Origin: Candidatus Bathyarchaeota archaeon
GTDB taxonomy: Archaea > Thermoproteota > Bathyarchaeia > 40CM-2-53-6
Direction: 5' to 3'
Length of the DNA: 64,000 nucleotides
NCBI GenBank assembly: GCA_963726255.1
Contig: CAVSBL010000002.1
Span: 416,001 to 480,000 of the forward strand
Shown: positions 29,814-47,301 of the stretch, piece after piece
Position numbering within the stretch: the stretch's first letter is position 1
How the letters are laid out: the number at the start of each line of letters is the position of its first letter
Program-made: the position numbers and the translations under genes
Notes under the pieces: generated by a model
The model's database searches: none
What the model was told of the DNA's origin: nothing
What the model saw: the letters and a program-made list of their open reading frames with translations, nothing else

Positions 29814-29858
29814 TAAGAAAAGGGAAGCCTCAAAAACCATTCGAACTAATGGGAATGC

Positions 29859-30308: not shown

Positions 30309-30410
30309 TTAAGTCAGCCTACGGCAAAACCGAATCTCCCTCTGTGGTCTGTGGGTGTACTGCGTCATAATGGGCACAGGGAAAACATTCCGAATACGAC
30401 GCCTAGAATC

Positions 30411-31103: not shown

Positions 31104-31165
31104 GACTTGATCGTAGCGGGAGTATGATGCAGCGTTATTTGTTTCTTATCCTTGTTGGGGCGAGT

Positions 31166-31196
31166 TGTGTGTGGGTCTAGTGGTGCGCACACACAC
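31166..31196 (+). repeat. Family A site (forward, best-conserved copy)
   Basis: TGTGTGTGGGTCTAGTGGTGCGCACACACAC. Confidence 0.88.
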
Positions 31197-31235
31197 TTCT
31201 AACCGACGTTCTGACGACGAGCATGCTGCTTTTTC

Positions 31236-31895
31236 TCAACGCTGTCCAGTCGGTACCTTTTCCGCATGCAAGAGGACGAAGGCCAGCACCGCCACCCATA
31301 GCATCCAACCATAGATGTTAACGCGTTCAGTGGCACCGAGCCATGGGGTCGGCAGGTTAGCGCTAATCGCAGGAACGTAAGAAAATCCAATAAAACCAAA
31401 CGCCAAGATTATCATGAACGACCCGACCGAGTAGTAGCGGAACCAATTTCGATATGCAACGGCTCCGAACACTATGGCCAACAGAATGGTGAAAACCCCC
31501 ACAGCGGTGAGAATCACGTGAAGCATACCGGCAGACTCTGCGCCGGTCACCCCGCGCATCGGTGCTGGGAAGTATACGGGCGTCACCAAACCATCGATCG
31601 CCTGGCCGAATACCATCAATGCTGTGACGCGCAAGGCGCGGTTGCGACCAGCTGACACCCAGACGCCCAAAGCGAACGCAAGCAAGAGCACGCCATACAC
31701 GGCGCCTAACCGAAGACCGAGTTGTCTAACAGGAGAGCTGGGGGAGAGCAGCTCGCTGAAGCCTTGAGATGCAAAACTGTAGCCCACATACAGTGTACCT
31801 GCGAGCGCGTCGATACTGGCATAAAGCAGCGAAGAGAAGATGCCGCAGAGGAGTAAGACCTGTCGTTTTTTCGTCAATGTCTGCGCAAGCCCCAC
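31236..31895 (-). CDS. DUF998-family membrane protein
   Basis: GYSFASQGFSEL, a conserved His, PTPWLGATERVNIY. Confidence 0.78.
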   Translation of the reverse strand: MGLAQTLTKKRQVLLLCGIFSSLLYASIDALAGTLYVGYSFASQGFSELLSPSSPVRQLGLRLGAVYGVLLLAFALGVWVSAGRNRALRVTALMVFGQAIDGLVTPVYFPAPMRGVTGAESAGMLHVILTAVGVFTILLAIVFGAVAYRNWFRYYSVGSFMIILAFGFIGFSYVPAISANLPTPWLGATERVNIYGWMLWVAVLAFVLLHAEKVPTGQR

Positions 31896-32074
31896 CAGGC
31901 CCCTACATCCTGGCGGTCAAGTACGAGGTCATGATTTGTGGTTTCCGTTTCTTGCGCGTGTCCAAGATGACCAGGGTAACCATAGTCCGATTGGTTGTCC
32001 TAGGGGCTGCTTTGTTCTTCTCCCGTTAGCGTAGAGGTAATATGCGTTGGGCCATAGGCTACGTGTCGTGATTC

Positions 32075-32887
32075 ATGTCGATGAAGGTAAGTCCGATAGT
32101 CTTCCAAGCTAGTAACGTGGTCGCGGTCATCGCTGTACTCATCATGAATACGTTGGTGAACATACTGCCGCTTAACGGTGTAACGACTGGGCAAGTTTCC
32201 GATTCCTATCCCAGTCTATTCACTCCACCAGGCTACGTCTTCTCTATCTGGGGCATGATCTATGCCTTTGCAGTGGTCTTCATGTTCTATCAAGCTAGAC
32301 CGAGCGAACGCGCGAAAGCCTACCTGACGCAGATCAACTTCCTATACCTTATCAGCGCTATCGCCAACGTGTCCTGGCTGTTTATCTTCCAATACTCCTA
32401 CGGGGTTCCACAGCTTTTCGTTATCTCACTGATCCCTATGACCGCCCTACTTCTCTGCCTAATCTCAATGTACCAGCGCTTGGGCATTGGAAGAATTCGT
32501 GTGCCTCGAAACCAGAAGCTTGCTGTTCACCTGCCAATCAGTATCTATCTCGGCTGGGTCTCGCTTGCCATCATAGCCAACATTGCATCAGTCTTGAACG
32601 TACTCATTCCAGGCATCCCCATGCCTACGCAGGCGCTTTGGACAGCCATCGTACTGGTCGTGGCTCTGGCGATCACAATTCTCATGGTGTGGACTCGAAG
32701 CGATTTCGCGTTCGGGCTTGTAGTTATCTGGGCTTCGATCGGCATTGCGTTCAATCGAGTTGCAATCCCCGCTGTCTTCGCGACTTCAACCGTAACCGCC
32801 ACCGTCGTGGCGATTCTCATCCTTGCCACACCATTCCTCAAGAAGGGGGGCTTCATTAGGTTCTACATGACAGCCAGCGGCGAGTAG
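32075..32887 (+). CDS. TspO/MBR-like tryptophan-rich membrane protein
   Basis: LPLNGVTTGQVSDSYPSLFTPPGYVFSIWGMIY, SIYLGWVSLA..AN. Confidence 0.78.
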   Translation: MSMKVSPIVFQASNVVAVIAVLIMNTLVNILPLNGVTTGQVSDSYPSLFTPPGYVFSIWGMIYAFAVVFMFYQARPSERAKAYLTQINFLYLISAIANVSWLFIFQYSYGVPQLFVISLIPMTALLLCLISMYQRLGIGRIRVPRNQKLAVHLPISIYLGWVSLAIIANIASVLNVLIPGIPMPTQALWTAIVLVVALAITILMVWTRSDFAFGLVVIWASIGIAFNRVAIPAVFATSTVTATVVAILILATPFLKKGGFIRFYMTASGE

Positions 32888-32953
32888 GCAGGGCCACAAG
32901 CCGCATTCTCATCCAATTTCACATGTAACCGCTGGGCTGTTTGCGTAGTACTC

Positions 32954-33008
32954 ATGGTGCGCACACACACAGCCCTTACGGTGACAACCTCAACGGTCTG
33001 CGCACCAG
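32954..33008. repeat. Two partial family A sites (forward 32954-32970, reverse 32999-33008)
   Basis: ATGGTGCGCACACACAC and TGCGCACCAG. Confidence 0.65.
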
Positions 33009-33627
33009 CTCATAAGGTACCCAATATCCTCGCTAGTACCAGAAACCCAAGTCGGAGCTATAGAATCTGGACAAGCCAGTGGACTCTTTCGCAAACGTCT
33101 TGAATACAGCCTGAAAGAAACAGGCCTGCATGAATGCGCGACTAGCGGTATCGTGTTTTGCTGTCAGTAAAGAAGCGGTGATCGTTTTGAACCATTGAGA
33201 GATTCCCGCTAGTAAGCGGGGCAGACCTGCCGGATTTGTAACGGCGACCAACCCCTCAGATATGGAAGGAATTAGGCGAGTTTTGGAGTGCCCAGGTCAA
33301 CGTCGGATTTGTGCTCTCGCAGCAGATTATCGATGACAACAATCCAATCAGCCTATTATCTCTAGAGGTGCAGGCTGACTTGGAGGCATGAATTGAATGC
33401 TTGGTTCGAGCGGTTACGTCACGTATTCGAAATGTGGGTTGTTCTTGTTTTCACTCGGTATCCGCATCTCTTAATGATGGATCGATACTCGGAGGAAAAG
33501 GCCCAGATCATGACTAGACTGTCGAACGAGACCAGAACGAAGAACTCAAGGAGCAATAAATCCTCCCGACTTTAGACTGGCTCCTTTCTTGTGCGAATTG
33601 GAGTGCCCTGATTGAACTGACGTTCCG

Positions 33628-33669
33628 GTGTGTGTGGGTCTAGTGGTGCGAGCAGTGGAATTTGAACCG
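33628..33669 (+). repeat. Family A left arm fused to a tRNA 3'-end complement
   Basis: GTGTGTGTGGGTCTAG-TGGTGCGAGCAGTGGAATTTGAACCG. Confidence 0.78.
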
Positions 33670-33744
33670 TCGTCGTTCGTAGTTAGTGAAGGTATGTAGG
33701 CGCACCAAGGGTACCAAATATGTCTGACCGCACGTGCGCGCTTC

Positions 33745-34944
33745 CTAGGTCGCCGCTGGAGTTGGTTCTTTGATTTTGAACCAGATTATGAAACCGATTA
33801 TGATAGCTAGGACTAGGTTGAGTATGAAGGGGGATTGTGGTGATATGTTGTCCCACATCCACCCACCTAGGATTGGGGACACGGCTGATGCCATGCCGGC
33901 AACGAGCGCCAGTATCCCAAACGTCTGACCGTACCTCTCTCGCCCGTAATGCAGAACAATGTGAGCGTTTAGGGCGGGCATCCACAAACTGTAGACGAAA
34001 CCAGCGAACACGGCGGATATGTACGCGAACTCAGGTCTCCAACCCAACAAAAGCGGCAGAAAACAACCAATAGCGGACCATTCACTAGCCGCCAGGAAAG
34101 GCCTCCCGCCGAGCTTGTCGAGCTTGGAACCCAACGTGAAACCCGTCAGCGCTGGGATTCCAGCGGAGATTGCCAATGCTATCCCTAACTGTTCTGGGGT
34201 AGATTTCATCTCTTTGAAAATATACAACGCCCAGAAGGGGAAGCTGATTCTCCATGCGACTGAATCGAGCGCTACTACCACCAGCAAAGGTATGAGGCTT
34301 TTGTCGGGGCGTAGGAACCCCCACCAAGACCCGGCTGCGGCTTCGGTTCGCTGGATTGGCTCTGGTTTGTAGCCCAGAGCCACGACTCCGAGAGCAGTTG
34401 CAACGAGAACGGCGGAAGTTGTGAAAATTATTTGTCTCGGGAGACCCATCGTGGTCGCTAAGAAACCCCCAAGGAGCGGTGCCAGTGTGGCGGCCGTTTC
34501 AGTTATGCCAAGGTCAATGCTGAAAATCTTTCCAAGTCCCTGCGTTGTGGTTGCGTGGCCGAGCGCCGCGTATGAAGCTGTCCCACGAATCGCCTGGTCC
34601 AAACTCACTAGCACGATGCCCGCGCCCAACAGAACCCAGTATGTGGCGAAAGAGTACGAAAAGAAACCAACCAGCGTCACGAGTCCCCCTACGAGAATGA
34701 AGGGTTTTCGCCCAATTCGATCAATCAAGACACCAATGGGCAAGCGAAGAAATGTGGCGCCCAGGCCTCCGATGGTTTGAGCTTGACCCACGAATGTTAT
34801 GCTAACCCCGATGGCGACGATTAACGGCGCGACGGAGGGAGAGCTGAAGCCAACCGCGAACCCGAAAAGCCCATCCACCATTATCAGGAGTAAGATCTCA
34901 CCCCTGAACAAACTAGGCCGAGCAATTGGGCTCGTCGGATACAC
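33745..34944 (-). CDS. MFS transporter
   Basis: GVLIDRIGRKP, SKLDKLGGRP; about 12 TM segments. Confidence 0.85.
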   Translation of the reverse strand: MYPTSPIARPSLFRGEILLLIMVDGLFGFAVGFSSPSVAPLIVAIGVSITFVGQAQTIGGLGATFLRLPIGVLIDRIGRKPFILVGGLVTLVGFFSYSFATYWVLLGAGIVLVSLDQAIRGTASYAALGHATTTQGLGKIFSIDLGITETAATLAPLLGGFLATTMGLPRQIIFTTSAVLVATALGVVALGYKPEPIQRTEAAAGSWWGFLRPDKSLIPLLVVVALDSVAWRISFPFWALYIFKEMKSTPEQLGIALAISAGIPALTGFTLGSKLDKLGGRPFLAASEWSAIGCFLPLLLGWRPEFAYISAVFAGFVYSLWMPALNAHIVLHYGRERYGQTFGILALVAGMASAVSPILGGWMWDNISPQSPFILNLVLAIIIGFIIWFKIKEPTPAAT

Positions 34945-35164
34945 CCCGAAGCAAACTCGGACACGAAGAGACTATTTCTGGATGTCCACTCATTGCCGGC
35001 AGCGATTTCGAACGTAAAAGAACCGGGCAATGCGGGCTCTGTTCGGTTTATGGCTGTTCGTGTCGGTTGTTCGGCATCGGCGGATGTTTATTCAGAGTTT
35101 TTCATGTCACGCGCCCACATTATACTATATAGTCTTCGAATGAGAAGTAACAGGGAGAGGAAAC

Positions 35165-35497
35165 ATGAAGATTGATGGAGTCGCGTTCTCCATAACCGAG
35201 TGGAGTGCAGTTGAGCCTGTTGAACATAGGGGAGAGAAGGGTTCAGCCTATTGGCGCACGTTGGAGACCGGAAACGTGCGCGTTCGAATCGTCGAATACT
35301 CCCCTGGGTACGTTGCGGATCATTGGTGCACTAGGGGACATGTGCTCTTGGTTCTGGAGGGAGAGTTAGTCACGGAGTTGAAGGATGGAAGAAAATTCAC
35401 GCTGAAACCTGGTTGCAGCTACCAAGTCGCAGACGACGAAAGAAATCCACACAAGTCAAGTACAGAGAAGGGCGCCAAACTGTTCATCGTCGACTAG
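35165..35497 (+). CDS. DHCW-motif cupin-fold protein
   Basis: EYSPGYVADHWCTRGH, SYQVADD..PH.S. Confidence 0.88.
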   Translation: MKIDGVAFSITEWSAVEPVEHRGEKGSAYWRTLETGNVRVRIVEYSPGYVADHWCTRGHVLLVLEGELVTELKDGRKFTLKPGCSYQVADDERNPHKSSTEKGAKLFIVD

Positions 35498-35499
35498 GC

Positions 35500-35521
35500 T
35501 GTGTGTGCTCTATCTGGTGTG
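35500..35521 (+). repeat. Degenerate family A site
   Basis: TGTGTGTGCTCTATCTGGTGTG, 2 nt after the cupin stop codon. Confidence 0.4.
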
Positions 35522-35615
35522 ACTGAATGTTCGTTAGAGCCACTGAGCATAACAATCTTTAAACTAATTATGACTAGCCACAATCCATTGAGACAGCTCG
35601 GGGAAAAAAGCAGGG

Positions 35616-36401
35616 TTGAACGGTTTTAACCGGAAAATACTATTGAACTTGGTCTTTGTCTCAATTGTACTCCTTGCCTTTTCCACTTTGCTGGGGAGCG
35701 CGTTCGGTCAGGTAGACTGCCCACCTGGATCACCGGGATTCCCGAATTGTGATTCGGGCGGTTTGCTGAGAGATGTCCTGACCTCTGTGCTGACACTTCT
35801 AGTTGTTCTCAACCCTGTAGTTGGACTGGTGTATTTCTCAGGCCTTACAGCTGGTTCGACCGTCCGTCAGAAGCAATTGATCGCAAACCGGGCTTCAGTC
35901 GTTGTTATCGTTCTGCTCTTGTTCTTCGCCTACCTAGGGGACGGAATACTAGCCGCACTAGGCATCACTTTGCATTACATTATGATCGCCGGAGGACTAT
36001 TCATTCTAATCTTCGCGATCAAGGACGCGCTTGGGGGTGCGTCCATTTCGGAGCATATGGATGAATCTGCGACCCCAAGCGGAGGTCAACTGTCTGATGC
36101 AGACGCGGAACGCATTGCCATCATACCGCTCGCGGTACCAGTGCTTGCTGGCCCAGGAGCGATGGCCGCAGTTATGATTTTGAATGATTTGCAATTCGGT
36201 TTCGTGGCGACCGGCATCGCCGTCGTAATCGATGCTACAATATGCTGGGTTACCATGCGGTTGAGCAGCAGGATTTTGAGTGCGGTTAGGCCCTCCTTCT
36301 TGACGATTGTGGGAAAGGTGATGGATATACTTGTCAGCGGTGTAGCCGTTGCATTCCTCATTCGAGGAATTACCGGAGCCTTGGGCATAAGTTTCGTTTG
36401 A
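35616..36401 (+). CDS. MarC-family membrane protein
   Basis: VVLNPV, IAGGL, IIPLAVPVLAGPGAMAAV. Confidence 0.88.
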   Translation: MNGFNRKILLNLVFVSIVLLAFSTLLGSAFGQVDCPPGSPGFPNCDSGGLLRDVLTSVLTLLVVLNPVVGLVYFSGLTAGSTVRQKQLIANRASVVVIVLLLFFAYLGDGILAALGITLHYIMIAGGLFILIFAIKDALGGASISEHMDESATPSGGQLSDADAERIAIIPLAVPVLAGPGAMAAVMILNDLQFGFVATGIAVVIDATICWVTMRLSSRILSAVRPSFLTIVGKVMDILVSGVAVAFLIRGITGALGISFV

Positions 36402-36500
36402 GGCACACATAATTTGCGAGTGTGGGGGTAAAAGGATTGCACAGCAGCAGAAAATTGAAGAAGATTGAATGTGTACTGAATATGTATCGCACGTGAGAAA

Positions 36501-36817
36501 ATGGTAGACAGGGCATACAAAAAGGACCTACCTGCACTGAGGAACGCTCTTGAGGAATTACGAGAGAGCTTTTCCAATCTTAGTTCTAAGACAGATTGGA
36601 CTAAACTGAGAATTGAACCGTTGCTGAAACATTTGCGATCACTGGACAGTTGTTGGAATCAGGAGAGTTTTCAGGAGAATTTTCACGATTGACAAAAGGA
36701 GTTGAGTTATTTCATTCCGACTTGGTGTATCTTAGAACAAATATCAGAGGGTTGGAAAAGGTTCTTCAGTCTGAGAAGAAATTTCTGGGGCGAAAAAACA
36801 AAAAAAGAAGCGGTTGA
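36501..36817 (+). pseudogene. Hypothetical protein with a 1-nt frameshift near 36647
   Basis: After HLRSL the shifted frame continues QLLESGEFSGEFSRLTKGVELFHSDLVYLRTNIRGLEKVL. Confidence 0.5.
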
Positions 36818-36847
36818 GCAGCACGTCCCATTCACCGGTCACCTTTC

Positions 36848-36882
36848 GTGTGTGTGGTGCGGTCTCGTGGTGCGCACACACA
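36848..36882 (+). repeat. Family A site (forward)
   Basis: GTGTGTGTGGTGCGGTCTCGTGGTGCGCACACACA. Confidence 0.78.
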
Positions 36883-36940
36883 ACCCTCAAGAGCCCAGTA
36901 ATCGTCCCTGAAGATGCGAGGAGAAACATGTCAGAGCGAA

Positions 36941-37087
36941 CTTGAGAAAGCGGTCGAACTGATTGAAGCGGAATACTCGAGAGGCGCAGATTGGCTGGGC
37001 GAAATCGCATATGACCCATTGTACGCTGCGGTCTCCGATGACCCCCGAGTCAAATCGATTCTAAGGAAGCTAGGGATTGCTCTCTAA
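36941..37087 (+). pseudogene. C-terminal fragment of a TolB-N/TPR protein
   Basis: LEKAVELIEAEYSRGADWLGEIAYDPLYAAVSDDPRVKSILRKLGIAL resembles the tail of 39414-40967. Confidence 0.55.
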
Positions 37088-37124
37088 GCTTCTTATTTCC
37101 CCACATCATGTGCGGAGCTTTGCA

Positions 37125-37148
37125 TGTGTGTGCGCACCATTAGACCCC
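37125..37148 (-). repeat. Family A site (reverse)
   Basis: TGTGTGTGCGCACCATTAGACCCC. Confidence 0.82.
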
Positions 37149-37219
37149 CCAAGGACAGGAAATATCATGAAATCATAAAATCACAAAAATAGAAAGAGAA
37201 TAGACACCGCATGAATGAC

Positions 37220-37534
37220 TTAGGCGAGGGCTAGAGGAATTACCTTCTCGGTTGGCAGGGCCGGAGACGTCTTATGGCGTGTGAAGAATCCTGGCATCGC
37301 TTTTGTCCAAAGAAGTTGGGCGTTGAATGCGGCTTCTTCATTCTCGGCTTCGAATATTGTTACGCCCCAAGATGGGATGCTCGGAGTTATGTACCAGGCG
37401 ATGACTTTGACTCCCTTTGTAGGCCACTTACCTGATTGGGCCAGTTGGGCTCCTATCTTCGCAATTTCCTTGATGTCTTTGTCGGGATTCAATTCCCAAT
37501 AGGTCATCATTAACATAGCTTTCACCTCCTTCAA
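37220..37534 (-). CDS. DUF3303-like small protein
   Basis: MLMMTYWE, GVKVIAWY, GVTIFEAENEE..W..SPAL. Confidence 0.65.
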   Translation of the reverse strand: MKEVKAMLMMTYWELNPDKDIKEIAKIGAQLAQSGKWPTKGVKVIAWYITPSIPSWGVTIFEAENEEAAFNAQLLWTKAMPGFFTRHKTSPALPTEKVIPLALA

Positions 37535-37557
37535 ACTTAATGTTAGGGAGTTCCACG

Positions 37558-38034
37558 CTAGGTTTTCGCTTCAGCTCTCCTCGCTAGGATTTGTCTGATT
37601 TCGATTGGGAGCTGAGGCTCGTAGCTCACTTGAAGCATCCACCGTAGTAAGTCGCGTTCCGAAACGAGACCGACAAGTTCCTCTCCATCGATGACTGGGA
37701 GCCTTCGGATACCGTGCTTAGCCATAAGATAAACGGCTTTGTCTATAGAAGTGCCCGGGGTTGCAGTAATAAGCGGACCTGACATTACTCGCCTCACTGG
37801 GGTTATCAGAAGATTCGAGCTCTTCGCAACTCTTCGAGACACATCACGTTCCGTGACAATTCCTACAGGTTTCTTACCTTCGACAACTACCACACACCCG
37901 ATGTTTTTCTTGACGATCTTCTTGAGCGCGTATTGAAGAAGGTCGGTCGGTTTCACGGTTTCAACGGGGCTAACCATTACCGATTCTACGCAGTCAACAA
38001 AACTTCCAGGCTCTCTCTTCCTCATCACGCGCAT
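37558..38034 (-). CDS. CBS-domain protein
   Basis: VGIVTERD, VM..PLIT, IRRLPV, VGLVSERD. Confidence 0.9.
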   Translation of the reverse strand: MRVMRKREPGSFVDCVESVMVSPVETVKPTDLLQYALKKIVKKNIGCVVVVEGKKPVGIVTERDVSRRVAKSSNLLITPVRRVMSGPLITATPGTSIDKAVYLMAKHGIRRLPVIDGEELVGLVSERDLLRWMLQVSYEPQLPIEIRQILARRAEAKT

Positions 38035-38130
38035 CCCAACTACGGCCCAACACCTTCAGGTATTACTTCTAAGAGTTGCCGTATGTTACTTTCTTACTCG
38101 CAGCGGCGACGGAGATACGACTTTTTCGTG

Positions 38131-38162
38131 GTGCGTGTGCGCACCGACCTACCCACATCCAC
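38131..38162 (-). repeat. Family A site (reverse, degenerate)
   Basis: GTGCGTGTGCGCACCGACCTACCCACATCCAC. Confidence 0.6.
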
Positions 38163-38264
38163 TAAAACACGCCTCCGGACTCCATGAATAGAACATGGGA
38201 TTCAGGAGTTGGAAAGCTTATCCGCTCTTTGCATCGTTATTTCACTGTTTAGTCAAGGCTTCCC

Positions 38265-38291
38265 TGTGCCCCTAACGGGGCGCACACACAC
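38265..38291 (+). repeat. Family A site (forward, degenerate)
   Basis: TGTGCCCCTAACGGGGCGCACACACAC. Confidence 0.5.
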
Positions 38292-38371
38292 TTTCAAGAC
38301 ATGAAGGACGACGGTCCGAATTACGAGGGGGGCACCAGGTAACGCCGGGGTCGTCCCTGTTCAACAGCCCA

Positions 38372-39073
38372 TCACTTGGCCAGGGATACCAGGTCCTTGG
38401 CCAGCTCTTCAGGTTTCGTAATCATCGGCCAATGAGCTGTTTCAATGAGATTGTAGGGGCCTTCCAGCTTTCCCCACTTCCCGGCAATTATCTCGTCGAC
38501 TGGGTCCCCGCTGAGACTGCAGAAGACGTATGCCTCCTTCACCTCGTCGTAGTTCTTTGACAGCGTGATCGGGTCGGTCGCAAGTCTAATCGGCCAGGGT
38601 GTCGCCATGGACATCATCCATTTTCGGTTTGAGCCTCTGACATCCTTTCCGATGCGGTCGATAATCTCCTCGGTGAGTGGAATTGCAGTACCGCCCTGGG
38701 GCGGAGACCCGAACTCGCGCGTAGGGTCGAACCCACCCTGCGGCGTCCTCACCTTCTCTGGTCGGAATGCATCAACGTAGATGACCGTCTCTACCTTTTG
38801 GTGTACGCGGTCCGCCACGGCGGCCACCACTTTGCCCGCAAAGCTGTGCCCCACCAGAACGCAAGCGTCAAGATCGTTGTACTTGATCACGTTGATGACA
38901 TCCTGGATGGCGGTCTCCATGCCGACATCTTTCGTGGCAAGGTGGACCCTTTCGCCCATTCCAGTCAATGTGACTGGATAGGCAGAATGACCCTCTTTCT
39001 CGAGGAGTGGAGTTACCTCCTTCCAGGCCCACGCCCCCAACCATGCGCCTGGAACTAGCACGAATCTTACCAT
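38372..39073 (-). CDS. Alpha/beta hydrolase (esterase-like)
   Basis: FVLVPGAWLGAWAW, LVGHSFAG, YVDA, HWPMITKP. Confidence 0.9.
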   Translation of the reverse strand: MVRFVLVPGAWLGAWAWKEVTPLLEKEGHSAYPVTLTGMGERVHLATKDVGMETAIQDVINVIKYNDLDACVLVGHSFAGKVVAAVADRVHQKVETVIYVDAFRPEKVRTPQGGFDPTREFGSPPQGGTAIPLTEEIIDRIGKDVRGSNRKWMMSMATPWPIRLATDPITLSKNYDEVKEAYVFCSLSGDPVDEIIAGKWGKLEGPYNLIETAHWPMITKPEELAKDLVSLAK

Positions 39074-39229
39074 GGGGACCCTTGGGGATAGCTCGCTACA
39101 TAAGTCTCTCGAATGTAACCTCTGGTCAGAGGGTTGTGTGAAAATAATGCACGAGGGAATCCAACCGTGTTCTCGTGGCATATGACATCATACGCATGGT
39201 GTCGAATCACACCTCACTCGCAAAGCCGA

Positions 39230-39252
39230 GTGTGTGTGGGTCTATTGGTGCG
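39230..39252 (+). repeat. Family A left arm plus core
   Basis: GTGTGTGTGGGTCTATTGGTGCG. Confidence 0.8.
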
Positions 39253-39413
39253 CCGCCCCCGCCGCGGGCTTAATGACCTTGACGACGCCGACGAAGACGA
39301 ACGATTACGACGACGCTAATACGAACGACGACATGATTGCTTACGAACGACAAGAACTCTTCAACGAGAACCTACAGAACAGTTCTTCATTGCGTATGAG
39401 TATGAAGTGACTG

Positions 39414-40967
39414 TTGAACAATCGAGTCTCTCGGGTGCGAGTTGAGGAAAGGCTCTATATCAACCGGCTCGGCTATCTTAGCCGAATACGACATCAGGTA
39501 ACCGTGAACCCTTTGCAACCAGCCGACTTCGCCCGGTCGAAGAGCTTCATCCCACCCGCATTCTCCTCAACGAAGCCGACGCTTGATAAGAACAGGGTTG
39601 CAGTCCTGCCGTTACAAAACATGAGCCCCGACCCCGCAGATGAATACTTCGCGGATGGCATGACTGAGGAGCTGATTGACAGACTTTCCCAAGTGAAGAG
39701 TCTACAGGTCATAGCTCGAACGTCGGTGATGAATTACAAGAAGAAAGAGAAGAATGTCTCCGAAATTGCAAAGGAGCTTAGCGTGGGTTCAGTGGTTGAA
39801 GGTAGCGTGAGGAAAGCGGGCAACCGGGTCAGAGTCACAGTTCAGCTAATCAGCGCAGAGACCGAGGCGCACCTGTGGTCCTCCCACTACGACAAGAATC
39901 TGGACGACATCTTCGCTGTCCAGAGCGAAATAGCGGAGAAGGTGGTTGGCGAGCTGAAGACCCAACTACTCGACTCTGAGAAAAGGACCCTAGAAAAGAA
40001 GCCGACCGAGAACACGGAGGCGTACACCTGCTTCCTGCGGGGTAGGGAGCTGTACAATGAGGAGACTGAGACCTCGTTTAGGCAGGCCCTCAGCCTCTTC
40101 GAGAAGGCCATCGTGCTGGATCCCAAGTTCGCGAAGGCCTACGTGGGAGTCGCAGACTGCCACCAATCGCTTGTTGGAAGCGGATGCGAGCCCGATGACA
40201 TCGGACTCCCAATTGTGAACACCTCGCTGGAGCGCGCCATTGAACTCGACCCGAACCTTCCGGAGGCCCACGCATCACTCTGCGGGATGTTCTTCAACGC
40301 GGACGACTCCGTGCGGTCGGAGGCAGAGGCGAGGAGGACTTTGGAGCTCAACCCCAGCCTCCCAGACCCCCACAATATCCTAAGCGAGCTAGCTGCGCTC
40401 AAAGGGGACCAAGGAGAGATGGTCAAACAAATGGAGGCAGCGTACCGACTCGACCCCATCAGGCCCCACCTCATCTGGCTTCTCGGGATGGTGTACCTCT
40501 ATACTGGGAAGGAGGAGGAGGCGCTTGAGCTCTGGAAGAAGACAGAGCAGTTGGCGCCGGCGCCCAGGTACAGAGGCATGGTTGAGTACTACCTGGCCAA
40601 GAGGGAGCTCGACAAGGCTAAGGAGTTCCACGCGAAAGCCGAGAAGCTTGAACCCACCCGTCCCTGGCTCTTCTGGACGAGTGGAGTCATCGCGGCCATA
40701 GAAGGCGACAGGGAGAAGGCGCTGCTCGCGTTCAAGAAGATTGAGGACGCCAAGATGGGCCCGATGGGCTTCAACTTCATCGGGTACGTCCATTATGCCC
40801 TCGGAGACCTGAACTCATTCTTCGCGTACATGGATAAGGCCCTCGAAGCCCATGCACTAGTTACCCTAATACTGATGTACTCGCCGCTCTTCGCTCAGGC
40901 AAGAGCCGACCCACGATATCCGGAACTGGTCGAGAGAATCCGGAAGCAGTGTGGCCTAACGAAATAG
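39414..40967 (+). CDS. TolB-N/TPR protein of the adenylate-cyclase-associated type, N-terminal domain missing
   Basis: RVAVLPLQNMSPDPADEYFADGMTEELI, EGSVRKAGNRVRVTVQLI, TPRs, RADPRY; start uncertain. Confidence 0.85.
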   Translation: MNNRVSRVRVEERLYINRLGYLSRIRHQVTVNPLQPADFARSKSFIPPAFSSTKPTLDKNRVAVLPLQNMSPDPADEYFADGMTEELIDRLSQVKSLQVIARTSVMNYKKKEKNVSEIAKELSVGSVVEGSVRKAGNRVRVTVQLISAETEAHLWSSHYDKNLDDIFAVQSEIAEKVVGELKTQLLDSEKRTLEKKPTENTEAYTCFLRGRELYNEETETSFRQALSLFEKAIVLDPKFAKAYVGVADCHQSLVGSGCEPDDIGLPIVNTSLERAIELDPNLPEAHASLCGMFFNADDSVRSEAEARRTLELNPSLPDPHNILSELAALKGDQGEMVKQMEAAYRLDPIRPHLIWLLGMVYLYTGKEEEALELWKKTEQLAPAPRYRGMVEYYLAKRELDKAKEFHAKAEKLEPTRPWLFWTSGVIAAIEGDREKALLAFKKIEDAKMGPMGFNFIGYVHYALGDLNSFFAYMDKALEAHALVTLILMYSPLFAQARADPRYPELVERIRKQCGLTK

Positions 40968-41091
40968 AAGTCGCGTTTAGTCTAGTGACTGTAGAACCTT
41001 CAACCAACCGTTCTACCGCTTGGCCTTCTGCATTATGATTTGATTGTCCGTTAGCGATATCAGCACGGTATCACCGGCTTTTAGAGTAAGA

Positions 41092-41125
41092 GGGTCTAAT
41101 GGTGCGGGCTACCAAAATTGAACCG
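41092..41125 (+). repeat. Family A core fused to a degenerate tRNA 3'-end complement
   Basis: GGGTCTAA-TGGTGCGGGCTACCAAAATTGAACCG. Confidence 0.7.
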
Positions 41126-41154
41126 AAAGTTCCGGTAGTTTTCAGTGGAAGAAG

Positions 41155-41173
41155 TTGTGCGGCCGCCGGGACT
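41155..41173 (-). repeat. tRNA 3'-end fragment (Gly-like), att-like scar
   Basis: Minus strand AGTCCCGGCGGCCGCACAA resembles the archaeal tRNA end TCCCGGCGGCCGCACCA. Confidence 0.55.
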
Positions 41174-41210
41174 CCCTAGTCGACTTTGTGAGACTCGATA
41201 GGTGCCGTTG

Positions 41211-42125
41211 TTAGAAGCCGAAGTATTCGTCTGGAATGAATTTTGCATCCGGGTCGATGCATCTTTTGATCAGGTCCATCGGCAGGAAGCAATTCTCTTC
41301 TTCAAAGAACTCAGCTTCGAACTCCCTTCGAAACCGGTCTCGGGGAATCCTACGCCGCATCTCCTCAACGAAATCAGTTGTGGTTAGGCCAGCTTTGATT
41401 ACGTCGTCGATGCTGATCTTGTGGACCTTGAAGGCTGGGTCTTGTGTGAACTGGTAGAAGACCGAGTTCTTTACCCAGGGTGTGGATGAGGCGATTAATG
41501 TGCCCTGGGTGGTTTGGAGCATGGGAAAGAGCACGCTGTAGAACATCGTCTCGTCATCACGAAAGAAGGCGCACTCGTCGCAGATGCATTGATTTGCGCT
41601 GTAACCCCGCAGCAAGTTCGTGGAGCAGGGCAGAGCGATGATTTGCGAGCCATTCTTGAACCATATGACAGTTCGCTGTATCTTCCCGATGTACTCTCTG
41701 CGAATTGGTCGGGGCATAGCCATCAGGAAGGAGTGGACCCGGTCCATCATGATCATGCTTTGCCGAAACCCAGGGGCGACGATGAGCGTCACGGTCTTGG
41801 AGTTTCTGCATGCGAACCAGATGGCCCTAGCTGCGATCGTCATGGACTTTCCCGATTGCCGTGGGTAAATGACAACGATTCGCTTCCCTGTCTCCCGGAG
41901 AAGCTTGGCTTGGTATTCGGCCGGATTGAATTTCAACGCCTTCTGAGCGAAAAGAACAGGGTCCTCAAGGTCCTGTTCCGAAAGCTGCTCAAATGGTGAT
42001 GAGCCTTCTCCAGGATCCTTCCCTGCGACGATCCTCTCGAAGGCTATTCTACGCCTTTCCTGTAGCCGTTTTTGCTTGTTCTTCGAGCTGTCTGGTAGCT
42101 TCCTCAAATGCCCTCTGCTCCTCAC
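41211..42125 (-). CDS. Phage terminase large subunit, ATPase domain only
   Basis: FNPAEYQ (Q motif), YPRQSGKS (Walker A), LRG, ICDECAF (Walker B), ASSTP, FRREFEAEF; no nuclease domain. Confidence 0.88.
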   Translation of the reverse strand: MRSRGHLRKLPDSSKNKQKRLQERRRIAFERIVAGKDPGEGSSPFEQLSEQDLEDPVLFAQKALKFNPAEYQAKLLRETGKRIVVIYPRQSGKSMTIAARAIWFACRNSKTVTLIVAPGFRQSMIMMDRVHSFLMAMPRPIRREYIGKIQRTVIWFKNGSQIIALPCSTNLLRGYSANQCICDECAFFRDDETMFYSVLFPMLQTTQGTLIASSTPWVKNSVFYQFTQDPAFKVHKISIDDVIKAGLTTTDFVEEMRRRIPRDRFRREFEAEFFEEENCFLPMDLIKRCIDPDAKFIPDEYFGF

Positions 42126-42681
42126 GAAGCTTCGTGATCTCCGCTAGAATCTCTTCTTCTGCGGCGCCGCGAAGAATCATCTCGTTTGTTGCAGCCGTAT
42201 GCGCTAAGAGTCCATACATGGCAGCACGCATCTGGTTCTGCGCGGCGAGTTGCTCGCATTGTGAAAGTTCGTAAATCTGATCGAAGGCGGTTTCCATCTT
42301 CTGGTATAATTTGTTCCTGCGCTCTTGCCGTGCTTGGGCTGCATGAACATTCACCGATCCTTTCTGTTCTTTGAGTGGTTGCTTGTAGGCTTCGGCGAGG
42401 GCTTGGTGGATGAGGCTGTTGGCGTAGCGGAGGCGTTCCAGGATATTTGAGTTGACTGTTAGCTTCGACAAGTGTCGCCAAAGAGCCTCCTCAACGATGC
42501 GGCTTCGGGTCATGTGTTTGTAGTCTGCGGCTTCCTGTAGGGCGAGGTATTGTGTTGCGGATAGTTGGAGTTGCATACGGAAGCTGCGCGGGAAGCCTGT
42601 GATGCGTTTGCGGTGCACCCGCCCCCGGTGGGTTGAAATGTAGCCTATTCGCGGGCGAGATGATGTGGTTTCGGCCTGCAT
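42049..42681 (-). CDS. Helical protein with RHH-like N-terminus, candidate small terminase
   Basis: MQLQLSATQYLALQEAADYKHMTRSRIVEEAL, then coiled coil; directly upstream of and overlapping terL. Confidence 0.55.
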   Translation of the reverse strand: MQAETTSSRPRIGYISTHRGRVHRKRITGFPRSFRMQLQLSATQYLALQEAADYKHMTRSRIVEEALWRHLSKLTVNSNILERLRYANSLIHQALAEAYKQPLKEQKGSVNVHAAQARQERRNKLYQKMETAFDQIYELSQCEQLAAQNQMRAAMYGLLAHTAATNEMILRGAAEEEILAEITKLREEQRAFEEATRQLEEQAKTATGKA

Positions 42682-42796
42682 AATGGCGCCATTCCAGCTT
42701 TGCCTTGGTCAATTGTCTACTCGCACGCTTGCTGGTTGGGGGAGCAAATAGGTTTATTGGTGAACCTATTGTACCTATCACGGACGGTGGGTACAG

Positions 42797-43543
42797 TTGA
42801 GGTCGAGAGGGCATGAGGTTAGGGCGGAAGACCCAGACCGCCGATTCATGGTCCTATACGCGATTCAGCGAGGAGCGAAGCGTTTCAACCAGATCTGGTT
42901 CGATAGCGAAGTCAGGGACGTGATCCATAGTAGGCTTACGCTCTCGCGGTACTTGAAAGCGCTAGAGAAGGAGGGCGTAATCAAGCGCAGCCCTGTATCG
43001 CACAAACATGTTGAATACGAGATTGCCGCAGGCGAACAGAGCAGTTGGGTGCTCGCCGCACAAGAGTCAGGTTTTGTCCCCTTCGACATTGAAGTGTTCC
43101 AGTTGATACTCAAGAGCATACGGGACAAAGCAAGCGGCTTGGACATAGCGTTGAACTACGCTTTCAGACGATTCTTTGAAGAAGAAATCAACGACGCCAC
43201 CGCCAAGATCATGGGCGGCATGCCCCAATACCGAAAACCCCTAGCCGAAGCCATGAAACTCACACATACCCCACACGAGAAAATTAATGAGGATTGGAGC
43301 GATGACATGATCACGTGGAGGTCAAGACGATACTACATGTTCCTGAAAAATCTACGGAGTTTGCTGCTCGAGGAACCTGAACATGTGGAGATATACCTTA
43401 AGGAAAGACCGTGGCTACGCCGGCCGAAAGAAAACAGGAATGGTGCCATTCTACATATAGAACGAATCTTGGCAGAGAAATACCCTCACACGCCGGGCGG
43501 GCTCGAACTCAAACACGCACTGAGGCAGGGAGAAAAATCGTAG
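42797..43543 (+). CDS. Winged-helix domain protein
   Basis: KRFNQIW...SRLTLSRYLKALEKEGVIKR...VEYEI. Confidence 0.7.
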   Translation: MRSRGHEVRAEDPDRRFMVLYAIQRGAKRFNQIWFDSEVRDVIHSRLTLSRYLKALEKEGVIKRSPVSHKHVEYEIAAGEQSSWVLAAQESGFVPFDIEVFQLILKSIRDKASGLDIALNYAFRRFFEEEINDATAKIMGGMPQYRKPLAEAMKLTHTPHEKINEDWSDDMITWRSRRYYMFLKNLRSLLLEEPEHVEIYLKERPWLRRPKENRNGAILHIERILAEKYPHTPGGLELKHALRQGEKS

Positions 43544-43566
43544 TTCGGGAGTGCTCGAGTTGCAGT

Positions 43567-43604
43567 CCCACGAATCGTGGGTTCGAATCCCACCGGCCCC
43601 ACTA
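43567..43604 (+). repeat. Family B tRNA 3'-end snippet 1
   Basis: CCCACGAATCGTGGGTTCGAATCCCACCGGCCCCACTA. Confidence 0.8.
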
Positions 43605-43790
43605 CTTTCGATCAGATATTCTCATATCTATGAGAGACAACAAGGAACATCGGAGTTCCCAACACACGTCGGTTTTATAGTTCGTTCTGCAGCTTGAACC
43701 CCTTATATATGCACGGTTGAAAATTACATAGGGAATAATGATAAGCCAATTAACTATACTCCTTACCATATTTACCTAATTGTTTACGCT

Positions 43791-45824
43791 TTGCGAGCCG
43801 TTCTCCTAACTCTTCTCGTTCTAGTTGTGGCTTCAGTTTCAGTTCAATCGCTAGCTATACCGAAGGGAGGTGCCTTCTCGCCTAGCCAATACGCAGGCAC
43901 GCAAGTGACCTACACGATTACCCTCAAGGGCGCCGACAAGACCACCCTTTCGATTGACGGCGGAACCGGGATCGAGTTCTCCAAGACAAAGACGGTAACG
44001 TTGGACGGATCAAAGTCGCACACCTTTCAAGTCCTTCAGGTAATTTGCCAGAGTGGATGGGAATGTGGAAACCAGGTCAGCGACTGGAAAAAAGGCATGA
44101 GGCTTTCCGCCAACCAATTGACTTGGACGGTCCCAGCAGGCACAACAGAAACAAGAACCTACACAGAAACATACTACGATTATGAATGGGTGTGCACGTC
44201 TTACGACGTCCATGGGTGCACCTCTGGATATTATGTAACGGTACCATACACGCAAGTGTACACTCAGAAGATTTTCACGCCTCCTTGCAAGCCATGCCAA
44301 TACACATTCGAGTATACGCCCCAGTATCGCTTAGTTTGGGAAGACGAGCATAGCTCGGCAGGGCTTTACCAATGGTTTGACTCCTGCGCATCGGTTACAC
44401 TGCTACCGCCCAGCCAGTACAGTTCTTTAGGTCACCCGGACACGGTTGCAGGCGCTGCTGGCGTGAGGTATGCCTTCGGAGGTTGGGCGATAGATGACTC
44501 ACGGTCGGTAGCGAATCAGGTTCAGATGTGCGCCCCTCACAAAGCCACCGCCACCTATCTCACACAATATCAACTGCTGGTTAGCGCTGCATGCAACGAG
44601 CTTAATCCACAAGGAGAGGGCTGGTTCAATGAAGGTGAAACTGCAACCATCTCAGTCGACCCCCAGGTGCCAATACCCGGCTGGCAGGGAACTCTGGGTG
44701 GAACATACGTTTTCGACGGATGGGAGGAAAGGCCTGCTGGGAACATTGCATTTCAGACGCCTACAGCGAACGTGATCATGAACCGGCCCCAAGCCTACTT
44801 CGCGAGATGTAGAGTGGACTACGCCGGGCCCGCTATCGGCGGCGGCATAATCGCCATCATAATAATTTTGGGCGGCATAATCGTCATATGTCGTATCACC
44901 CGCGGCCGCTGGATCATATGTCGCATCTTAGGCCGGAGGTTCGGCCCTATCTTCGGCGGCAGGGGAGGCCAGCCCCTAGGCGGCGGCGTTGGTGGTGGCG
45001 GCTTACTCCCACCGAACGTGACCGGAAACGCCACGTTGACCGGGCCGAACGGAACCCAAACACCATTGACTGCTGGTAACCTGAATCAAGTTGGTCCCGG
45101 AACAACCGTGGACACGGGGCCTCAGTCTTTCGTCCGCGTGGCAACCCCAGCAGCATCCAATTCACAGTCTGTAATTGGACAGCAATCAAGAGTCAGTTGG
45201 CTTGACCCCAATCCCAAGACGCCCATTCCTTGGTTGAAATTCCCCGGACTCTCCCAAATTTACAACGCTGGCAGTTTGCTGCTGCGAGTTGACTTCGGAA
45301 AAATGCTCCTCAGCTGGGCGGAACGAGCCGCAACGCAAGAGGCAGTGATAATCCTCCCTGCCAGCCTAATCGGAGCGGCGACCTCGGCCGCGATGAGTAG
45401 GTGGCTTGCTCGCGTCAGAGGAACCATGGTGCTCATTGAAGCTGTTCAAGACGGCACGGCTGCGGCCATAACGGTTCTCGAAGGAGACGAGAGCAAAGCG
45501 AGCAGCGCGGAACTCTGGCGAAGCGACGACCTGAACAAGGTTATTCAAGTCCGCGCCGGCGAACGCGTGGTTCTGCAAACAGGCCGACACCCAACAAAGA
45601 CTACCGTTGATTTAGCGAAAGGTTTGACACGGCAGTTACAAGACCCATTTGGAACTCTCCACAAATGGTGGAAACTGCCGTCGATGTCAGACGAAACCAA
45701 CGCCGCCCTTACCGTCCTCGGCCCCGAGGGGCCCGTCGCCAACGACTGCCCCAACTGCGGCGAACCAATTAGACCGGGAAAGAAGTTCTGCATGAAATGC
45801 GGAACACGAAAAAACCAGACTTAA
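43791..45824 (+). CDS. Large membrane protein: signal peptide, Cys-rich/Ig-like region, TM, FecR-like region, C-terminal zinc ribbon
   Basis: Signal peptide; GEGWFNEGETATISV repeat-type segment; Ile-rich TM; GTTVDTG..S and VRGT..V...ITVLEG; CPNCG..KFCMKCG. Confidence 0.75.
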   Translation: MRAVLLTLLVLVVASVSVQSLAIPKGGAFSPSQYAGTQVTYTITLKGADKTTLSIDGGTGIEFSKTKTVTLDGSKSHTFQVLQVICQSGWECGNQVSDWKKGMRLSANQLTWTVPAGTTETRTYTETYYDYEWVCTSYDVHGCTSGYYVTVPYTQVYTQKIFTPPCKPCQYTFEYTPQYRLVWEDEHSSAGLYQWFDSCASVTLLPPSQYSSLGHPDTVAGAAGVRYAFGGWAIDDSRSVANQVQMCAPHKATATYLTQYQLLVSAACNELNPQGEGWFNEGETATISVDPQVPIPGWQGTLGGTYVFDGWEERPAGNIAFQTPTANVIMNRPQAYFARCRVDYAGPAIGGGIIAIIIILGGIIVICRITRGRWIICRILGRRFGPIFGGRGGQPLGGGVGGGGLLPPNVTGNATLTGPNGTQTPLTAGNLNQVGPGTTVDTGPQSFVRVATPAASNSQSVIGQQSRVSWLDPNPKTPIPWLKFPGLSQIYNAGSLLLRVDFGKMLLSWAERAATQEAVIILPASLIGAATSAAMSRWLARVRGTMVLIEAVQDGTAAAITVLEGDESKASSAELWRSDDLNKVIQVRAGERVVLQTGRHPTKTTVDLAKGLTRQLQDPFGTLHKWWKLPSMSDETNAALTVLGPEGPVANDCPNCGEPIRPGKKFCMKCGTRKNQT

Positions 45825-45853
45825 TCAGATGAACGAAGAATGCTGACGGTTCT

Positions 45854-46720
45854 ATGAACCAGCGACTTGCAGTCGGTATCTTGCTAGTTGTTTCTGCATT
45901 GATATTGTTGACGTATTCATCAGTACCTACGCAACCTACGCAAGTGTCAGTAACAACAACACTGCCGACCTCCACAACAGTTGTTACTACTTATTCAAAG
46001 TACGTAACGAGTACGAGTTGTATTTCTAATTGCTCCCCCTTGGACTATGCGTACCTCTCGCCGCTGACCCCACACTTTTCGGGAAGCAAGATCTTGAACC
46101 CTCCTAGCGCACAATATGGTTGCACTTATGACGACGCCAATTTCGAGGCTCAATCAGGTCAGGTGTATGCAATTGCAATAAGTTCCGATCACGAAGTCTC
46201 TTTTTACATCTTACCGTCAGACGCGTTCGAGGCATGGATGGCCGGTACGACTTGCCAAGTCTCCGCCATTGGTTTAGGCTCGGGAGACGTGACCAGTGCA
46301 TCCTCGCTCAATTTTGTAATCCCAGAGAGCGGAACCTATTACATTCTGTTCATGAACAATTCGCACGATAACGCTGCCAACTTAAGCTATCTGGGGCAAA
46401 TGATTGGTTCAGCTACGGTAACAACGGCTGTCGTTACCACTTCTTCTGTTTGGAGAGAATACCTTACTTCAACTGAGACATCTAACTTGAGCCCATCTGC
46501 GACCACCTCGTTATTCTCTTCGTCTAGGAGCCTGGTTTTTGCTGCAATCGCGTTCCTTCTCATAGCGCTCGCCGGAGCACTTTTCATCCGGCAAAGATTG
46601 TGGGTAAAAGGAAAGACCCGCAGAATCAAGAAAGCCGGAACAAAGTCTTGCCCAATATGCAACAGTCTTCTGCCGGAGTCCGCTCAGTTCTGCGATGAGT
46701 GTGGCTCCCACCAGACATAA
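45854..46720 (+). CDS. Membrane-anchored protein with Ser/Thr linkers and C-terminal zinc ribbon
   Basis: N-terminal TM, FVIPESGTYYILFMN beta domain, TM, CPICN...FCDECG. Confidence 0.75.
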   Translation: MNQRLAVGILLVVSALILLTYSSVPTQPTQVSVTTTLPTSTTVVTTYSKYVTSTSCISNCSPLDYAYLSPLTPHFSGSKILNPPSAQYGCTYDDANFEAQSGQVYAIAISSDHEVSFYILPSDAFEAWMAGTTCQVSAIGLGSGDVTSASSLNFVIPESGTYYILFMNNSHDNAANLSYLGQMIGSATVTTAVVTTSSVWREYLTSTETSNLSPSATTSLFSSSRSLVFAAIAFLLIALAGALFIRQRLWVKGKTRRIKKAGTKSCPICNSLLPESAQFCDECGSHQT

Positions 46721-46905
46721 TGGGAATGACCGTCCTTGAGAAAAACGCCAAAACCAGAATCGAAACCTAACCTTACTTTCCCTCCTCTTCGTTTCGTAAT
46801 GGTGCCGCTCGTATTTTCGCTTCTCTCACCCCTAGTTTTGAACACGTTCCTAAACATCCTCTTGAAGGCTCAGACTCGGTTCGAACACATCTTGGAAGCG
46901 ACGGC

Positions 46906-47301
46906 TTGAGCAACCCATCGTTTTGTCCAGTCTGCCGCGCTAGGCTTCCGAGCGATGCTACGCTGTGCGAAGAATGCGGAACTTCTATCAGCAAGAAGGC
47001 GGTGCAGACGTCAGAGCGAACGATAGTCGGCCCCGTTGTCCGACATAAGAATCCCTTGCTGGCAGCGATACTAAGTTTCTTCATTCCAGGGCTTGGCCAA
47101 TGGTATTTGCGCAGATGGAAGAGTGGAGCAGCCTGGTTTTTCGGATCAATACTATTGGTTGTCATACTGGACGGGCTTCTAGGGGCGTTGTCCTACTTTT
47201 TGTCACTGGACGTGACGGGCCCTGCAGTTTGGGCGATAGTTGTAGGAGGTTTAGTGATTCGGATTGCTAGCGCATGGCACGCTAGAAAGTTGGCCGATTG
47301 A
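46906..47301 (+). CDS. Zinc ribbon plus TM2-like membrane protein
   Basis: CPVC...CEECG, then KNPLLAAILSFFIPGLGQWY. Confidence 0.78.
   Translation: MSNPSFCPVCRARLPSDATLCEECGTSISKKAVQTSERTIVGPVVRHKNPLLAAILSFFIPGLGQWYLRRWKSGAAWFFGSILLVVILDGLLGALSYFLSLDVTGPAVWAIVVGGLVIRIASAWHARKLAD

Follow-up and report, generated by a model that had tools for sequence, protein, structure and literature searches.

A block of three genes, about 2.37 kb long (41180-43565), sits in a 64,000-nucleotide stretch of a Bathyarchaeia genome and carries one half of a viral DNA-packaging motor. The stretch, hereafter the window, is C2:416001-480000, C2 being one of the 5 contigs of genome G000 (2.42 Mb, 98.5% complete); L- and G-numbers denote the loci and genomes with which it was compared. 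Two of the genes lie on the minus strand. TerL-N (41211-42125) encodes a 304-amino-acid (aa) large-terminase ATPase subunit without a nuclease domain, and upstream of it a gene at the position of the small terminase subunit TerS (42049-42681) encodes a protein of 210 aa, the called open reading frames (ORFs) overlapping by 77 nucleotides (nt) on the same strand. A spacer of 115 bp separates the 210-aa gene from a divergent plus-strand gene for a 248-aa winged-helix regulator (42797-43543). A first-pass annotation, made from the sequence letters alone, had proposed these three ORFs, and all three are present as proposed. No replication gene occurs in the block. The annotation's further remark that the 64 kb hold no portal, capsid or tail gene agrees with our searches, in which the Pfam integrase, portal, capsid and tail families had no member among the 66 window ORFs of at least 90 aa and portal queries drew a blank in tblastn. 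We found no link between the block and the neighboring gene cassettes that it had been suggested to mobilize.

TerL-N is a large-terminase ATPase domain. It belongs to the Pfam family Terminase_6N (PF03237; E 2.8e-16, 60.3 bits against a cut-off of 22) and matches PHROG 7579, "terminase large subunit," at E 3.5e-27, and its nearest solved structures by PDB profiles (E 9e-11 to 3e-9) are gp17 of T4/RB49 and the ATPase domain of TerL from Thermus phage P74-26. Residues R89-Q-S-G-K-S94, D183-E184, S213-S-T-P216, and Y71-Q72 are invariant or nearly so in 37 homologues and line up with the corresponding stretches of T4-type gp17; we take R89-S94 to be the Walker A motif, D183-E184 the Walker B motif with its catalytic glutamate, and S213-P216 the coupling motif. 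The 304-aa TerL with intact Q, Walker A, Walker B, and STP motifs that had been read from the letters is thus borne out by profiles above cut-off and by conservation.

TerL normally joins this ATPase to an RNase H-like nuclease. The TerL-N ORF ends, as described earlier, in a clean stop at the domain boundary where the nuclease should begin, and a nuclease gene would not fit 3' of TerL-N, where the next gene, a convergent one for a TPR protein, already ends at 40967. Neither five nuclease ORFs of relatives nor three portal proteins gave a tblastn match in the window or in any of 11 module loci. The nuclease domain PF17289 was found in G000 only within a fused TerL at C2:1322893-1324224. This 443-aa protein is 35% identical to TerL-N, has no portal beside it, and lies about 5 kb past Suf-operon-like genes (judged by gene sizes matching the PHROG-annotated genes of L037); its gene seems to be a further terminase gene that stands alone.

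The first-pass annotation had noted that the stop stands where a nuclease domain should begin and had held open that the endpoint might be unique and the closest homologues all full length. The relatives of TerL-N give a different picture. We found 573 homologues, and the best 120 fall into two length classes, 78 of 241-314 aa and 42 of 402-487 aa. The C terminus lies within 15 aa of the TerL-N end in 85 of 128 aligned homologues, these 85 all ending in ...FGF, and the long forms in this alignment run on past that point into the nuclease domain. The 14 homologues that are 79-93% identical to TerL-N all measure 241-304 aa. To place the short forms in their genomic settings, 20 short-form loci of other Bathyarchaeia were fetched, and the 13 longest were examined by PHROGs with five ORFs on each side. 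A separate nuclease ORF (PHROG 5909/5713), often overlapping the ATPase ORF by 4-8 nt, stands directly downstream of it in 12 of the 13, and in the remaining locus the contig ends just after the ATPase ORF. The nuclease ORF has a portal gene next to it in 4 of the 13 loci, one of them also with scaffold and major head genes, and IMG/VR holds 73 viral contigs with TerL-N relatives at 48-64% identity. With a separate nuclease ORF in 12 of 13 loci, a large terminase made from two ORFs is, judged by gene order, the usual arrangement across much of this lineage of viruses. At L035, an HNH endonuclease gene (7398-7772) lies between the ATPase and nuclease ORFs and hints at how TerL may have been split.

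In a quick IQ-TREE phylogeny (LG+G4, with outgroup rows on long branches), TerL-N and its 14 close homologues form one clade (SH-aLRT 100, stem 0.34). The sister clade (support 94) has 30 rows and consists mostly of fused forms, and the two nest in a clade of 108 rows that holds two large short-form clades. The clean stop of TerL-N is an inheritance from a virus lineage with a naturally split TerL, and the novelty of this clade is the loss of the nuclease ORF, not the truncation of a fused gene; the earlier reading is to be corrected on this point. The literature on terminases, Bathyarchaeia proviruses, and archaeal satellites (supplements aside) yielded no description of an ATPase-only terminase module, and accounts of Bathyarchaeia viruses, in the portions accessible to us, mention only ordinary TerL.

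The 210-aa protein is less readily classified. It has an arginine-rich N-terminal arm, a possible ribbon-helix-helix (RHH), and long helices, and searches of Pfam, PHROG, and NCBIfam placed it in no TerS or curated family, the best matches being to unrelated families at E 0.004-0.35. The sole match to an RHH-type profile, NF008671 of NCBIfam (E 0.0039), is below the cut-off. The AlphaFold2 model has a mean predicted local distance difference test score (pLDDT) of 58, with the N-terminal 77 residues under 50; in this low-confidence model, helices are predicted at residues 42-71 (42-56 and 59-71 at pLDDT <50) and 80-209. Of the "overlapping RHH/coiled-coil gene" proposed earlier, the 77-nt overlap stands, whereas the RHH part has behind it the NF008671 match and the low-confidence helical model. 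A complex prediction for TerL-N with the 210-aa protein scored 0.00 and carries no weight either way.

Comparison with related viral loci was more informative. A hidden Markov model (HMM) of the 210-aa family, built from 13 sequences, retrieved in its first round 7 ORFs (E <=0.015) among the ORFs of 97 related loci, lying upstream of TerL, a position that was formally checked in the iterated set. Iterated to convergence, the model matched 84 of 5008 ORFs, and 79 of these 84 have TerL as their immediate downstream neighbor on the same strand (77 of the 97 loci); the profile was iterated and the proteins are helix-rich, and drift is possible. Because 79 of the 84 matches occupy this place, the 210-aa protein is likely a divergent member of the family found at the TerS position in related viruses. 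It occurs in 7 of 401 class-wide genomes, all of this genus. Elsewhere in G000, a solitary TerS-like gene for a 174-aa protein (C2:1337684-1338208; L142 6685-7209; profile E 1e-32) has no TerL beside it; genes for a TIR-domain protein and a YaaC-like protein are found about 5 kb away.

The third protein is, as had been proposed, a divergently encoded winged helix-turn-helix (wHTH) protein. It matches HxlR (PF01638) at E 9e-6 and 25.9 bits, against a cut-off of 20.8, and its residues 9-94 align in VIA-align with RosR, SmtB, and MarR at Z 9-10 (root mean square deviation 2.7-3.1 Å over 75-86 residues). The C-terminal 150 or so residues are helical. Foldseek found nothing for the model in the PDB at E <=0.001, a wide VIA search matched the wHTH domain only, and residues 95-248 had no usable match in the ESM Atlas. 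There is no counterpart in the 97 related viral loci. The protein belongs to an orphan family, with 37 proteins in a set of 5.8 billion and 25 matches, including three full-length clusters, among 1.84 billion representatives. Partial copies of the 3' part of the gene exist apart from any block, one of 518 bp at C2:492770-493287 (L144 2730-3266; 84%) and a further 3'-end piece of 81 nt at L004/L060 4226-4306 (81%).

The block is not confined to the window. The full trio, in the same order and orientation, is present in L053 (92% protein identity) and in L055, L056, L059, and L060 (82-85%), with nucleotide identities to the block of 82-94%, and parts of it occur in the short contigs L003/L005, L054, L057, and L058; L060, L004, and L006 are one contig in three views. 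Recurrence of an ATPase-only TerL with the same endpoint and partners and without structural genes, which the first-pass annotation had made the touchstone of its proposal, was therefore observed in five further loci. L053 is 94% identical in nucleotides over window positions 41092-43602. Homology of the 82-85% copies ends about 30 nt past each outer stop codon, at about 41180-41197 and 43545-43565, and at both ends identity drops from about 0.8-0.9 to below 0.3 within about 30 nt.

These sharply delimited copies lie amid different cellular genes in at least five contexts. L053 is flanked by Nramp and iron-dependent repressor genes on one side and by TBP, TFS, nitroreductase, and Vgb-type lyase genes on the other; L056 lies among KaiC-like ATPase and short-chain dehydrogenase genes, with Cas1 about 6 kb off; and in L059 the block lies between an ABC transporter gene and tRNA-Ala(TGC) with an aminotransferase gene. 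Both flanks of L059 have their collinear counterpart in G000 at C2:155865-175859 (76-96% identity). There, L059 carries a 3.2-kb insert with the block beside tRNA-Ala(TGC), and the empty site of G000 consists of about 50 nt between the transporter gene and tRNA-Ala. The difference is a presence/absence polymorphism beside a tRNA gene. Next to the block in the window, G000 has 17.6 kb (about 23600-41100) that L053, the 94%-identical contig, lacks between block and TBP gene; the ordinary-looking genes of this stretch encode an oxidoreductase, MFS transporters, a subtilase, a hemerythrin, and MarC, CBS, hydrolase, and TPR proteins.

The distribution is patchy. TerL relatives occur in 159 of the 401 genomes of the class-wide sample, and block-type TerL-N (at least 74% identity) in 4 of 23 genus genomes, plus one partial copy with a stop; a separate scan of a genome collection gave 2 loci only. 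IMG/VR has no close relative of TerL-N, the 210-aa protein, or the wHTH protein, so the block is not itself a virus. No circular or excised form was seen in the assembled contigs of four runs over window 38000-47000. A joint of 39252 to 43575 is backed by 23 letters in one contig and is not trusted. A second module type, comprising a TerS-like protein (201-214 aa), TerL-N (315 aa), and TerL-C (182-199 aa), is present in three other genus genomes (L037 7481-9504, L038 7495-9530, and L039 7455-9451), with no portal within five ORFs, differing flanks, and omega, the dN/dS ratio, of 0.10-0.20. In this genus, then, a module with terminase genes only is no isolated case.

The two outward-facing tRNA scars that had been described as the flanks of the unit fared unevenly. 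The right one (43538-43604, plus strand), which resembles the 3' part of a tRNA with hairpin, T arm, and acceptor strand, is real. It matches the tRNA-like part of the Rfam tmRNA model at E 1.4e-5 in a 3-kb search and 3.1e-4 over 64 kb, below the gathering score, which no Rfam match reached over the 64 kb; its T arm and acceptor are common to tRNA genes, fragments, and 3' ends elsewhere in the genome. The left one (about 41150-41176, minus strand), similar to a tRNA 3' end and trailer, is weak: the tRNA at C2:925550-925644 matches it with its 3' end and trailer at 86% over 37 nt (blastn E 8.7e-4). Both accompany the block only in G000 and its nearest relative L053, whose copy includes them and where the right scar is kept with a CCA end; the right scar is absent from L056, L059, and L060. 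Since the 82-85% copies lack them, the scars are not the ends of the conserved unit.

Other tRNA-like sequence lies around the block. A 45-nt tRNA-3'-like motif (41097-41141, minus strand; ...GGTTCAATTTTGGTAGCCCGCACCA), outside the cross-species conserved block and without an Rfam match, has an 89% copy at C2:1342228-1342272 and two copies at C2:1774533-1774592, and travels with the block only in L053. Fragments like a T arm and acceptor, with no tRNA call, follow downstream of the block on the plus strand at 48951, 51520, 55427, and 56394. ARAGORN found no tRNA in the window. Its intron mode offered a tRNA-Ala with a 1115-nt intron (42412-43602), an artefact whose 5' half lies inside the conserved 210-aa coding region. 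Over the whole 2.4-Mb genome, ARAGORN called 2 intron-less tRNAs and, with introns allowed, 35, several with "introns" of kilobase size.

All three genes are under purifying selection. By the Nei-Gojobori method on codon alignments, from which the degraded copy L007 was left out, median omega is 0.14 for TerL-N (44 pairs, range 0.02-0.37), 0.19 for the 210-aa gene (43 pairs), and 0.21 for the wHTH gene (15 pairs); against the copy of the window, dS reaches 0.49-0.75 with omega of 0.12-0.24. The dN/dS comparison called for earlier hence shows no relaxed selection. These values bear directly on the simple alternative of the first-pass annotation, namely, that the block is an inert provirus remnant, the packaging end of a dead virus left by deletion and now drifting. 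Viral ancestry, the missing nuclease, and the absence of structural genes are what such a remnant would show, as are stops in some copies and the fragments of the block found elsewhere (the 518-bp 3' half of the wHTH gene and 5' pieces of the 210-aa gene). A thaumarchaeal element with TerS and TerL as its only viral genes has been judged a likely relic in the accessible part of its description (PMC6563490). Drift is hard to reconcile with three ORFs that most copies have preserved intact despite dS of up to 0.5-0.75 (omega 0.12-0.24), with invariant catalytic motifs, with identical block ends in at least five contexts, and with 15 distinct clade members in one length class. Selection, motifs, and recurrence together make the remnant highly improbable.

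A repeat within the block adds a further element. A core of about 60 nt (about 42640-42700; feature 42625-42710) extends across the start of the 210-aa gene and is present in 7 copies in G000, 5 each in G281 and G313, 2 each in G307 and G275, 1 in G260, and none in the 17 other genomes of the genus. An intact block is found in precisely the three genomes that have 5-7 cores; because these genomes are related (G000 and G281 are 95% alike), the coincidence is a pattern and no test. The six solo cores of G000 lie at C2:876522, 998116, 1181346, 1528510, 1671715, and 2076498. Within the core, the palindrome AATGGCGCCATT (42682-42693) abuts the start codon of the 210-aa gene and is kept in other copies via paired changes. 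Sequencing depth spikes at the core, and four short contigs break there. Two ideas about the solo cores were dropped: as portable promoters, 2 of the 6 in G000 have a downstream gene in matching direction, and only 1 of 7 cores lies beside a tRNA-like motif.

The cores might be recognition sites for the TerS-like or the wHTH protein at 4-6 further chromosomal places, from which, on infection by a split-terminase virus, the TerS/ATPase pair would begin packaging with the nuclease subunit and procapsids of that helper and export host DNA along with the module in viral particles, as an archaeal gene-transfer device; we regard this as very doubtful. Repeated cores would also suit an ATPase recruited outside capsids, for instance, to translocate or segregate the DNA of a small mobile element, with the 210-aa protein as site-specific loader and the wHTH protein as regulator or initiator. 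The layout, with a small, putatively site-binding protein that has an arginine-rich arm, a P-loop ATPase, and a third DNA-binding protein, could be likened to that of three-part plasmid partition modules, and the wHTH C-terminal domain, with no known fold match, leaves space for such a role. On the other side, capsid packaging is the only process from which TerL ATPases are known, the 210-aa protein is a likely homologue of viral TerS-position proteins, and the block has no replication gene, and a use unrelated to capsids accordingly seems quite improbable to us.

The genomic company of these genes invites a defensive interpretation, in which the block is a host-only antiviral decoy whose ATPase subunit and TerS-like protein bind the viral nuclease subunit, portal, or DNA and abort packaging, and which spreads as ordinary accessory DNA. 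The patchy, island-like distribution beside tRNA sites and among variable genes fits this interpretation, as do Cas1 and a KaiC-like ATPase near the L056 copy and the TIR-domain gene about 5 kb from the solitary TerS-like gene at C2:1337684-1338208. Split targets also make a dominant negative at the level of a subunit easy to picture. Set against this, none of the three proteins matches a PADLOC model, and a subunit that acts as a poison could afford to lose its catalytic motifs, whereas those of TerL-N (Walker A, Walker B, and the coupling motif) are invariant; the dispersed 60-nt cores, in 5-7 copies only where the block is intact, would be left unexplained. We consider a pure decoy unlikely.

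The explanation that we prefer, with a probability of roughly 45%, is that the block is a working, horizontally moving accessory module that acts in trans on the packaging of split-terminase viruses, either as a hitchhiker or by interference. As it has no nuclease, portal, capsid, integrase, or replication gene, its action would most likely be in trans, and the arguments for this are the ancestry of the module and the modular, two-subunit build of the terminases in its relatives, both read from sequence. The module descends from packaging genes of tailed viruses of Bathyarchaeia in which ATPase and nuclease are naturally separate polypeptides, the two subunits of the large terminase. The 210-aa protein would serve as the DNA-recognition protein at the TerS position, probably cotranslated with TerL-N from the overlapping operon, and the wHTH regulator probably governs the palindrome-bearing promoter region of 115 bp that the two divergent units share. 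When a related split-terminase virus infects, the TerS/ATPase pair might engage the viral nuclease subunit, portal, and procapsids. Packaging could then be diverted to DNA that bears the module's own recognition site, which amounts to satellite-like hitchhiking, or the packaging of the virus could be spoiled, to the benefit of the host. We hold these two outcomes to be about equally probable.

Several observations weigh against this explanation. The portal families phrog_9232 and phrog_12 have no match in the whole of G000, and hence no helper is visible there; the head family phrog_1650 has none in G000 but none in control genomes either, so that its absence means little. The block lacks integrase and replication genes that would account for its movement, and at 2.4 kb it is far below the capacity of any capsid. 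The L059 insert is not flanked by direct repeats of at least 9 nt and is about 840 bp larger than the block. G000 and L053 have the block at the same locus, collinear with the TBP, nitroreductase, and lyase genes except for the 17.6-kb indel, so that part of the apparent change of context is turnover of the flanks and not movement. Some copies are decaying, with a stop in the 210-aa gene of L059 and L007, the latter also having a TerL-N without its N terminus. PADLOC-DB 2.0 contains no family that matches any of the three proteins at E <=1.

Terminases are hallmark genes of tailed viruses, and a lone terminase is usually dismissed as provirus debris. The block is instead a conserved, portable, and selected half-terminase module: selection preserves half a terminase together with its putative recognition partner, the pair shifts from one chromosomal site to another, and no capsid gene accompanies it where it recurs within a single archaeal genus. 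The second module type, which retains the nuclease half, shows the same behavior. Provirus finders that count TerL matches will over-call such loci. We know of no cultured virus-host pair for Bathyarchaeia. Should the module indeed act on viruses that infect the cell, archaea would have their first hitchhiker or interference element that bears a terminase, the split of TerL into two subunits would create a point of attack at a single subunit, and three proteins and one 60-nt site would make up a simple system.

Among known systems, the nearest in gene content outside viruses is a cryptic element. As of Krupovic et al. 2019, in the sections available, the terminase complex had not been identified in nonviral elements, and NitKor-E1, integrated in Ca. 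Nitrosopumilus koreensis with TerS and TerL as its sole virus-like genes, was described as enigmatic and likely a relic (PMC6563490). As far as that account extends, NitKor-E1 shares with the block chromosomal archaeal terminase genes without any other tailed-virus gene and differs in its tyrosine integrase, VapBC pair, restriction nuclease, apparently ordinary TerL, and status as a single case. The block, in contrast, lacks the nuclease half and an integrase, and its selection and recurrence are documented here.

Phage satellite islands re-aim the packaging of a helper, for example, with a small terminase of their own, and the bacterial ones carry integrases. Like the block, satellites are small, have no capsid genes, and depend on the particles of a helper, which for the block is a proposal. 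Unlike it, none has been reported, in the sources at hand, with the ATPase subunit of a large terminase. The block has no integrase, att repeats, or replication gene and no identified helper, and it does show a tRNA-proximal polymorphism. The archaeal satellites described so far (haloarchaeal/nanohaloarchaeal ones and Asgard NMV2S) are, in the available parts of their reports, plasmid-like, with replication functions and no terminase, and these reports indicate that concatemers can offset the small size of a satellite (10.1101/2025.02.15.638363; 10.64898/2026.08.12.739948). The gp16 ATPase of the phi29 type packages capsids without cutting DNA, a parallel to the nuclease-free TerL-N; according to the accessible text, it differs in belonging to another ATPase lineage and to a complete virus and in retaining a vestigial, inactive nuclease domain (PMC7672431).

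The split terminases of Bathyarchaeia proviruses and of IMG/VR viral contigs (L034, L036, L041, and L042, among others) share most with the block: a homologous ATPase ORF (33-64% identity) with the same ...FGF end and, directly upstream and overlapping, a homologous gene at the TerS position. Unlike the block, they have a nuclease ORF downstream and, in several cases, portal, scaffold, and major head genes, whereas the block alone pairs its half terminase with a private wHTH partner.

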